This document shows positions 26,350 through 26,987 of a stretch of 64,000 bases of DNA, in pieces. The translations under genes and the position numbers were made by a program. Every line of letters starts with the position of its first letter. The first letter of the stretch is position 1. The notes under the pieces were generated by a model, which saw only the letters and a program-made list of their open reading frames with translations, was not told the origin of the DNA and made no database searches. The DNA lies in NCBI RefSeq assembly GCF_003334765.1, contig NZ_QOWT01000001.1; one strand, given 5' to 3'. Source of the stretch: Escherichia coli (lineage in GTDB: Bacteria > Pseudomonadota > Gammaproteobacteria > Enterobacterales > Enterobacteriaceae).

Positions 26350-26928
26350 ATGAGTGAAAAAAGCATTGTTCAGGAAGCGCGGGATATTCAGCTGGCAATG
26401 GAATTGATCACCCTGGGCGCTCGTTTGCAGATGCTGGAAAGCGAAACACAGTTAAGTCGCGGACGCCTGATAAAACTTTATAAAGAACTGCGCGGAAGCC
26501 CACCGCCGAAAGGCATGCTGCCATTCTCAACCGACTGGTTTATGACCTGGGAACAAAACGTTCATGCTTCGATGTTCTGTAATGCATGGCAGTTTTTACT
26601 GAAAACCGGTTTGTGTAATGGCGTCGATGCGGTGATCAAAGCCTACCGTTTATACCTTGAACAGTGCCCACAAGCAGAAGAAGGACCACTGCTGGCATTA
26701 ACCCGTGCCTGGACATTGGTGCGGTTTGTTGAAAGTGGATTACTGCAACTTTCCAGCTGCAACTGCTGCGGCGGCAATTTTATTACCCACGCTCACCAGC
26801 CTGTTGGCAGCTTTGCCTGCAGCTTATGTCAACCGCCATCCCGGGCAGTAAAAAGACGTAAACTTTCCCAGAATCCTGCCGATATTATCCCACAACTGCT
26901 GGATGAACAGAGAGTACAGGCTGTTTAA
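26350..26928 (+). CDS. flhC: Flagellar master regulator FlhC
   Basis: 192 aa; zinc-binding Cys cluster (CNCCGG...CSLC). Confidence 0.95.
26859..26885 (+). promoter_or_regulatory. sigma-28 promoter inside the flhC 3' end (motA/MotR promoter)
   Basis: TAAACTTT-N11-GCCGATAT. Confidence 0.65.
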
Positions 26929-26987
26929 CTGATACGGTGTGGCGCAACATTCCAGCAGCGGTAACGACGTACCGCTGCTTTTTTTTG
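26893..26987 (+). ncRNA. motR: MotR-type sRNA from the motA 5' leader (sigma-28 promoter to intrinsic terminator)
   Basis: The sigma-28 promoter is followed ~95 nt later by hairpin AGCAGCGGTA...TACCGCTGCT plus T8, before the motA start. Confidence 0.45.
26953..26987 (+). terminator. Rho-independent terminator between flhC and motA
   Basis: GC-rich hairpin followed by TTTTTTTT. Confidence 0.75.

Follow-up and report, generated by a model that had tools for sequence, protein, structure and literature searches.

The motR locus at the flhC-motA junction of Escherichia coli: conserved sigma-28 promoter and terminator, a natural seed allele and a possible built-in anti-terminator

The small RNA MotR of Escherichia coli K-12 arises from motA's 5' UTR, and its promoter, which is located inside flhC, is also the promoter of motAB-cheAW (Melamed et al. 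2023, PMC10578931, eLife 12:RP87151). On northern blots MotR was detected as a band of ~95 nt that was gone in a fliA deletion, together with longer bands that were ascribed to transcripts running past the MotR terminator (Melamed et al. 2023, PMC10578931). In the same study the RNA co-immunoprecipitated with Hfq, was recovered in RIL-seq chimeras with fliC and rpsJ, and was described to base-pair inside both coding sequences, with up-regulation of ribosomal protein S10. A chromosomal mutant with three changed seed nucleotides (motR-M1) had fewer flagella and a lower activity of the flgB and fliL promoters at an unchanged RNA level; compensatory mutations in the rpsJ target were unobtainable for the authors, and anti-termination by S10-NusB was proposed in the paper (PMC10578931). 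MotR links late flagellar gene transcription to ribosomal protein S10 and flagella number. The intragenic promoter has a literature of its own: it was reported to be the most conserved FliA promoter, and its -10 element was found to constrain the residues Ala177-Asp178 of FlhC, a 'duon' (Fitzgerald et al. 2014; bioRxiv 10.1101/188474).

We analysed a stretch of 64,000 nucleotides of an E. coli genome (assembly GCF_003334765.1, contig NZ_QOWT01000001.1; hereafter the window), in which flhD, flhC, motA, motB and cheA follow each other in this order, all on the + strand. According to the list of open reading frames, flhD occupies 25988-26347 (+), flhC, which carries this name in E. coli genome annotations, 26350-26928 (+; 192 codons plus TAA, stop codon at 26926-26928), and motA, the first gene of motAB-cheAW, 27055-27942 (+; GTG start, also supported by annotation). 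A piece of 501 nt across the locus is present in 5376 of the 5426 complete E. coli genomes, with 100% identity to many of them. When the flhC-motA junction was matched to the E. coli genome collection, two of 5379 hits were plasmid-borne and not chromosomal. At the left end the window is not collinear with O157:H7 strain TR01, which carries a prophage there.

A sequence-only reading of the window had placed a near-consensus sigma-28 promoter of the form TAAACTTT-N11-GCCGATAT in the last 70 nt of flhC, and this placement was confirmed: the motif lies at 26859-26885 (+), starts exactly 70 nt ahead of the end of the flhC stop codon and deviates at two positions from the consensus TAAAGTTT-N11-GCCGATAA. 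The -35 element (26859-26866) is supported by the motif search, by conservation and by the table of FliA ChIP-seq sites in Fitzgerald et al. (2014), in which the identical 28-mer TAAACTTTCCCAGAATCCTGCCGATATT is given for (flhC)motAB-cheAW. The -10 element (26878-26885) coincides with the flhC codons Ala177-Asp178-Ile179 and is supported by conservation and by the published 'duon'. The window as a whole contains six sigma-28 sites at ≤ 3 mismatches, where 0.59 were expected; a count of six was not attained in any of 100 shuffles. The transcription start, taken from the K-12 annotation and from the cloning primer SM001, falls at 26892, the motif ending 7 nt before +1, and the last 70 nt of flhC contain the promoter as well as MotR nt 1-37. 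This position of +1 is corroborated by the published constructs, since primer SM001 (5'-ACAACTGCTGGATG...) begins with ACAACTGCTGG and TGC occupies MotR nt 6-8 (Melamed et al. 2023, PMC10578931).

The RefSeq annotation of K-12 MG1655 lists the ncRNA motR (b4828, 95 nt) at the orthologous place, overlapping the 3' end of flhC. Its ortholog in the window spans 26892-26986 (+), also forms nt 1-95 of the motAB-cheAW leader, and is identical to the K-12 RNA at 94 of 95 positions without gaps, the sole difference being at 26940 (T here, A in K-12). MotR is present in 5377 of the 5426 complete E. coli genomes. The 3' end is formed by an intrinsic terminator hairpin at 26954-26979 (+; terminator scan and fold), with a stem of 10 pairs of which 6 are G-C, a loop of 6 nt (26964-26969) and a T-rich stretch behind it; the U8 tract at 26979-26986 (+) is the MotR 3' end, as judged from the sequence and from the end of the K-12 motR feature. 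The strong hairpin followed by T8 ahead of the motA start at 27055 had been recognised correctly, whereas the 3' end predicted with it, at 26987, was not upheld: the RNA stops at 26986, and 26987 is a G. The hairpin is the dominant feature in the predicted fold of 26893-26987; beyond the terminator the fold of the whole RNA is unremarkable (z = -1.72).

The remainder of the motA 5' leader (26987-27054, +) occurs in read-through transcripts only, and motif and promoter scans of the interval between terminator and motA recovered neither a sigma-70-like site on the + strand nor a sigma-28 motif. Within this part of the leader (27020-27050) the MFE fold allows CAUCCU (27020-27025) to pair with AGGAUG of the motA ribosome-binding region, and a CAUCC-like motif is found ~35-40 nt ahead of motA in several genera. 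That CAUCCU sequesters the Shine-Dalgarno sequence of motA was considered and rejected, the fold being no better than that of shuffles (z = -0.75).

The pair of products that had been predicted, a MotR-like short transcript alongside read-through motAB-cheAW mRNA, matches the annotated K-12 motR and the published K-12 data, and the northern comparison of wild type and fliA deletion proposed as a check has been published for K-12 with the predicted result (PMC10578931). Rfam 15 returned no match at the locus (E ≤ 1) and none at gathering score in the region; as it contains no MotR family, its silence is not evidence against MotR. The locus is almost certainly motR combined with the class-3 promoter of motAB-cheAW, and this strain probably expresses MotR as K-12 does. 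Since motR is annotated in K-12 and published, the feature is not new: the sequence-only reading rediscovered a known sRNA and by itself adds nothing to its biology. In what follows the dependence on sigma-28, the size of the RNA, its binding to Hfq, its targets and the phenotypes are taken from the K-12 literature, and our analysis supplies the sequence elements, the orthology to b4828 and the conservation of promoter and terminator. New here are the conserved motif offset, the frozen synonymous sites, the compensatory changes and retention of the terminator, the hypothesis of an anti-terminator and the seed base at which the window departs from K-12.

On this basis, sigma-28 (FliA) RNA polymerase would start at 26892, within the last codons of flhC, and part of the transcripts would end at the intrinsic terminator (U8 to 26986), giving the Hfq-binding MotR of 95 nt. 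The central seed of MotR (nt ~43-54) would pair with sites in the coding sequences of rpsJ and fliC and promote flagellar synthesis. The remaining transcripts would pass the terminator and yield the motAB-cheAW mRNA, and the upstream flhDC transcript would be ended by the same hairpin as MotR.

For the comparative analysis, 80 loci were collected by a scan with FlhC, one genome per species, spanning Escherichia, Salmonella, Citrobacter, Enterobacter, Kosakonia, Pantoea, Erwinia, Serratia, Pectobacterium, Brenneria and others. In all 79 loci from other species the best sigma-28 match begins exactly 66 nt upstream of the last flhC codon; TAAACTT(T/A) at -35 and GCCGATA at -10 are invariant in these 79 loci and the 11-nt spacer is free to vary. 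In all informative loci motA lies 3' of flhC at a near-constant distance.

A codon-level analysis covered 71 gap-free flhC genes. Median synonymous codon identity within flhC is 0.57, and of the 17 codons with an identity ≥ 0.95 as many as 13 fall within the last 26 codons, where they form three patches. Patch 1 (codons 167-172) contains the -35 element and its upstream flank. The flank itself (26848-26858, +; codons 167-170, GTA AAA AGA CGT) has identities of 1.0, 1.0, 0.86 and 1.0 in the 71 genomes; we found no mention of its freezing in the MotR or FliA-promoter papers, and it may reflect an extended contact of the sigma-28 holoenzyme. Patch 2 (codons 177-178, codon identity 1.0) corresponds to the -10 element and reproduces the published 'duon' conclusion. 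Patch 3 (26893-26910, +; codons 182-187, CAA CTG CTG GAT GAA CAG) encodes MotR nt 2-19 and is frozen although it lies downstream of +1: six successive codons have identities of 0.99-1.0, and their mean was reached by 0 of 100,000 random 6-codon draws. A description of this patch was likewise not found in the MotR or FliA-promoter papers. The leucine codons illustrate the effect, with an identity of 1.0 for Leu172 (CTT in 71 of 71), Leu183 and Leu184 versus 0.28-0.72 at 20 other conserved leucine codons.

The terminator has a narrower distribution. An E. coli-type terminator (UCCAGCAGCG...CGCUGC followed by U6-9), whose distance is fixed, occurs in ~69 loci of Enterobacteriaceae and Erwiniaceae, for which the predicted MotR length is 88-96 nt, with one of 115 nt. 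In an alignment of 64 distinct sequences 98.1% of the terminator cells are paired; the 7 basal pairs show no or almost no variation, and compensatory changes are seen at the 3 apical pairs (double-change cells: 22, versus 4.5 in shuffles; 0 of 500 shuffles reached 22). Serratia, Pectobacterium and Brenneria (L071, L073-L079, L081) kept the promoter and have other hairpins with poor U-tracts in longer leaders of 170-255 nt, which indicates that the promoter is older than the E. coli-type terminator.

The same terminator would have to stop flhDC transcripts and let motAB-cheAW transcripts pass, and the strongest alternative bears on this point. It holds that the locus acts chiefly in cis, as an attenuator whose terminated product is the sRNA, and it adds to the MotR reading instead of replacing it; we consider it possible, although the odds are against it. 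A 5' strand at 26896-26903 (+; MotR nt 5-12, CUGCUGGA, including the MotR* site at nt 6-8) would pair, once its partner has been made, with a 3' strand at 26951-26958 (+; MotR nt 60-67, UCCAGCAG), of which nt 63-67 double as the base of the 5' arm of the terminator, and would tie up half of that arm. The hypothetical helix would let a share of the sigma-28 transcripts read into motA. On the flhDC mRNA nt 1-37 would be under translation, so that ribosomes would hold the helix apart and leave the terminator fully effective. A single hairpin would then be a tight stop for flhDC and a leaky one for motAB-cheAW; this translation-based discrimination between flhDC and sigma-28 transcripts we infer purely from the geometry.

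The predicted structures point in both directions. The two strands, MotR nt 5-12 and nt 60-67, are exact reverse complements, and their pairing can be extended to 10 bp if one bulge is allowed; the helix is the MFE structure at RNA lengths of 67-78 with a pair probability of ~0.99 for both alleles. Dinucleotide shuffles, however, give an 8-nt complement in 2.4% and an equal sequestration in 1.2% of cases, and shuffled upstream sequence sequesters the arm at a mean probability of 0.65. Moreover, only 5 of the 10 arm nucleotides would be covered, so that strand displacement would have a toehold of 5 nt, and the full-length RNA is predicted to prefer the terminator (-28.7 versus -25.5 kcal/mol, a difference of 3.2 kcal/mol). 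The published derivative MotR* (nt 6-8 UGC>GAG), which was 'identified by chance' and is 'more abundant' (Melamed et al. 2023, PMC10578931), abolishes the predicted helix, and this would predict more termination; on the other hand, its abundance could reflect greater stability alone.

The comparative evidence is similarly divided. In favour of an anti-terminator, synonymous sites are frozen in nt 2-19; the UCC beyond the terminator stem, like the 7 basal pairs, is invariant or nearly so (64 distinct sequences); the apical pairs show covariation; and nt 38-59 diverge, a pattern that a three-way constraint would yield. All loci with an E. coli-type terminator retain the helix, which reaches 10 perfect pairs in Erwiniaceae. 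The best partner of the 5' end within the leader is the terminator arm in E. coli, Salmonella and Pantoea, which shuffles match in 0.3-4%, and Serratia, without the E. coli-type terminator, has synonymous changes in the codons of this 5' end. Against it, Pectobacterium and Brenneria, which have neither the E. coli-type terminator nor the partner, show the same degree of freezing at nt 2-19, and a search of the Serratia, Pectobacterium and Brenneria leaders recovered no partner for the conserved 5' end above chance. No helix pair is changed on both sides, the 8 core pairs being invariant or changed on one side; because the helix never varies, covariation is uninformative for it and not contradictory. 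An anti-terminator structure is not discussed in the MotR paper and no other description was found in the literature. We put forward only tentatively, and with the balance tilting to the negative, that MotR nt 5-12 (the QLLD codons of flhC) may be a built-in anti-terminator of the MotR/flhDC terminator. If true, it would account for an operon behind a strong terminator, for the accumulation of MotR* and for the six flhC codons past +1 that are frozen in Enterobacteriaceae and Erwiniaceae, and a cis-acting anti-terminator, possibly sensitive to translation, would offer a testable route for the expression of motAB-cheAW through the terminator of flhDC.

Returning to MotR as a trans-acting RNA, its seed region (nt 43-54, 26934-26945, +) is where the window departs from K-12. 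The primers SM467/468 define M1 as GTG>CAC at MotR nt 46-48 (Melamed et al. 2023, PMC10578931). This GUG triplet (26937-26939) is intact in the window, and U49 (26940; A49 in K-12) lies directly 3' of it. For the K-12 RNA, nt 43-54 and rpsJ +141 to +152 form a continuous predicted 12-bp duplex (RNAduplex), which fits the published target position of '~+150'. U49 replaces the central A49·U+146 pair by U·U and changes the predicted duplex energy from -22.7 to -19.0 kcal/mol (RNAduplex). The rpsJ segment is identical in 5300 of 5426 genomes, including an O157:H7 strain that bears the MotR allele of the window, and U49 is thus not compensated in rpsJ. The window allele (U49) occurs in 583 of 5377 E. 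coli genomes (11%) and the K-12 allele (A49) in 2897 of 5377 (54%). As U49 is also the state in Salmonella, Citrobacter and E. albertii, it appears to be ancestral and the A49 of K-12 derived. The trans-acting strength of the window allele may therefore differ from that of K-12 according to the duplex predictions, and natural alleles at nt 49 may tune the strength of the pairing between MotR and rpsJ. Given that the seed base of K-12 differs from that of the window, of O157:H7 and of other genera, conclusions on the rpsJ target drawn from K-12 may not carry over to all strains. A first MAFFT profile had suggested that the seed is poorly conserved; the strong form of this statement was withdrawn, since an alignment of MotR only shows a core GUGUGG that is common to most Enterobacteriaceae genera.

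Seed conservation also bears on a second alternative, namely that the short RNA is an incidental by-product of a promoter that serves solely motAB-cheAW and a hairpin that serves solely flhDC. Promoter and hairpin indeed each have an independent and sufficient reason to exist, conservation between genera is lower in the seed than in the promoter, the 5' end and the terminator, and the K-12 allele (54%) and the window allele (11%) differ at a seed position. Yet the GUGUGG core is shared by most Enterobacteriaceae genera, the RNA binds Hfq and forms RIL-seq chimeras with fliC and rpsJ, and motR-M1 has a phenotype at unchanged RNA level (PMC10578931). This alternative is largely refuted by the last result, and we hold it to be improbable. 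That motif and hairpin are functionless chance matches can practically be dismissed: consensus scans yield false positives in general and nothing further speaks for it, whereas six sites versus 0.59 expected, the same position in 79 of 79 loci, the frozen sites and the ChIP-seq and northern data already refute it.

Various other features were recovered in the window. A perfect sigma-28 consensus, TAAAGTTTCCCCCCTCCTTGCCGATAA, at 31445-31471 (+) is identical to the published tar-tap-cheRBYZ promoter, and on the opposite strand a match to the Rfam sRNA C0465 (31378-31455, -; 111.6 bits) ends within this site. The sigma-28-like sequence TGAAATTGCACCAGATCGAGCCGATAA at 23627-23653 (-) is identical to the intragenic otsA site of the FliA ChIP-seq data (Fitzgerald et al. 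2014). Divergent sigma-28 sites at 1306-1332 (-) and 1426-1452 (+) flank the gene of a flagellin of 497 aa (fliC, 1522-3015, +) and are presumably the fliD and fliC promoters; they differ from the sequences in the K-12 ChIP-seq table, which is consistent with the variable fliC region. The flagellin of H7 strains is longer, and an O157:H7 origin of the window is therefore improbable. The fliC stop codon (3013-3015) is followed within ~45 nt by a GC hairpin with T6 (3037-3058), and just past this hairpin, at ~3129-3156, lies the fliA promoter 28-mer TGCAGAAACGGATAATCATGCCGATAAC; the sRNA FliX derives from the fliC 3' UTR (Melamed et al. 2023, PMC10578931). A weak sigma-28-like sequence, TAACGTATTTTATAGCACTGCCGATAT, with 3 mismatches at 9260-9286 (-), between sdiA and a uvrY-like response regulator gene, may be a chance match. 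At Rfam gathering score the window also contains the sRNAs MicL (45446-45753, +; 381.9 bits) and ES036/CssrF (49689-49731, -; 45.5 bits) and three tRNA genes (12853-13152, +).

Compared with the described systems, the locus is closest to MotR of K-12 MG1655, with which it shares the synteny between the flhC 3' end and motA, the promoter 28-mer, +1, the length of 95 nt and the terminator, and from which it differs by the single substitution U49 versus A49. UhpU, FliX and FlgO are, like MotR, FliA-dependent, Hfq-binding and UTR-derived sRNAs of the flagellar regulon, but they come from 3' UTRs (FliX and FlgO by processing) and MotR is the product of termination in a 5' UTR (PMC10578931). The FliA 'duon' of flhC (Fitzgerald et al. 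2014; bioRxiv 10.1101/188474) concerns the same promoter as the one analysed here. That work differs from ours in that the terminator is absent from its text and the frozen codons 182-187 are not covered.

Trp-type leader-peptide attenuators consist of mutually exclusive segments, and the position of the ribosome on segment 1 decides whether the terminator forms. If the anti-terminator holds, the MotR leader would be alike by analogy, with nt 5-12, 60-67 and 79-88 as the exclusive segments. It would differ in that MotR has no dedicated leader peptide, segment 1 being formed by the last codons of a full-length upstream gene, in that half of the terminator arm would be sequestered, and in that the outcome would be a choice between two classes of transcript and not a response to tRNA charging.
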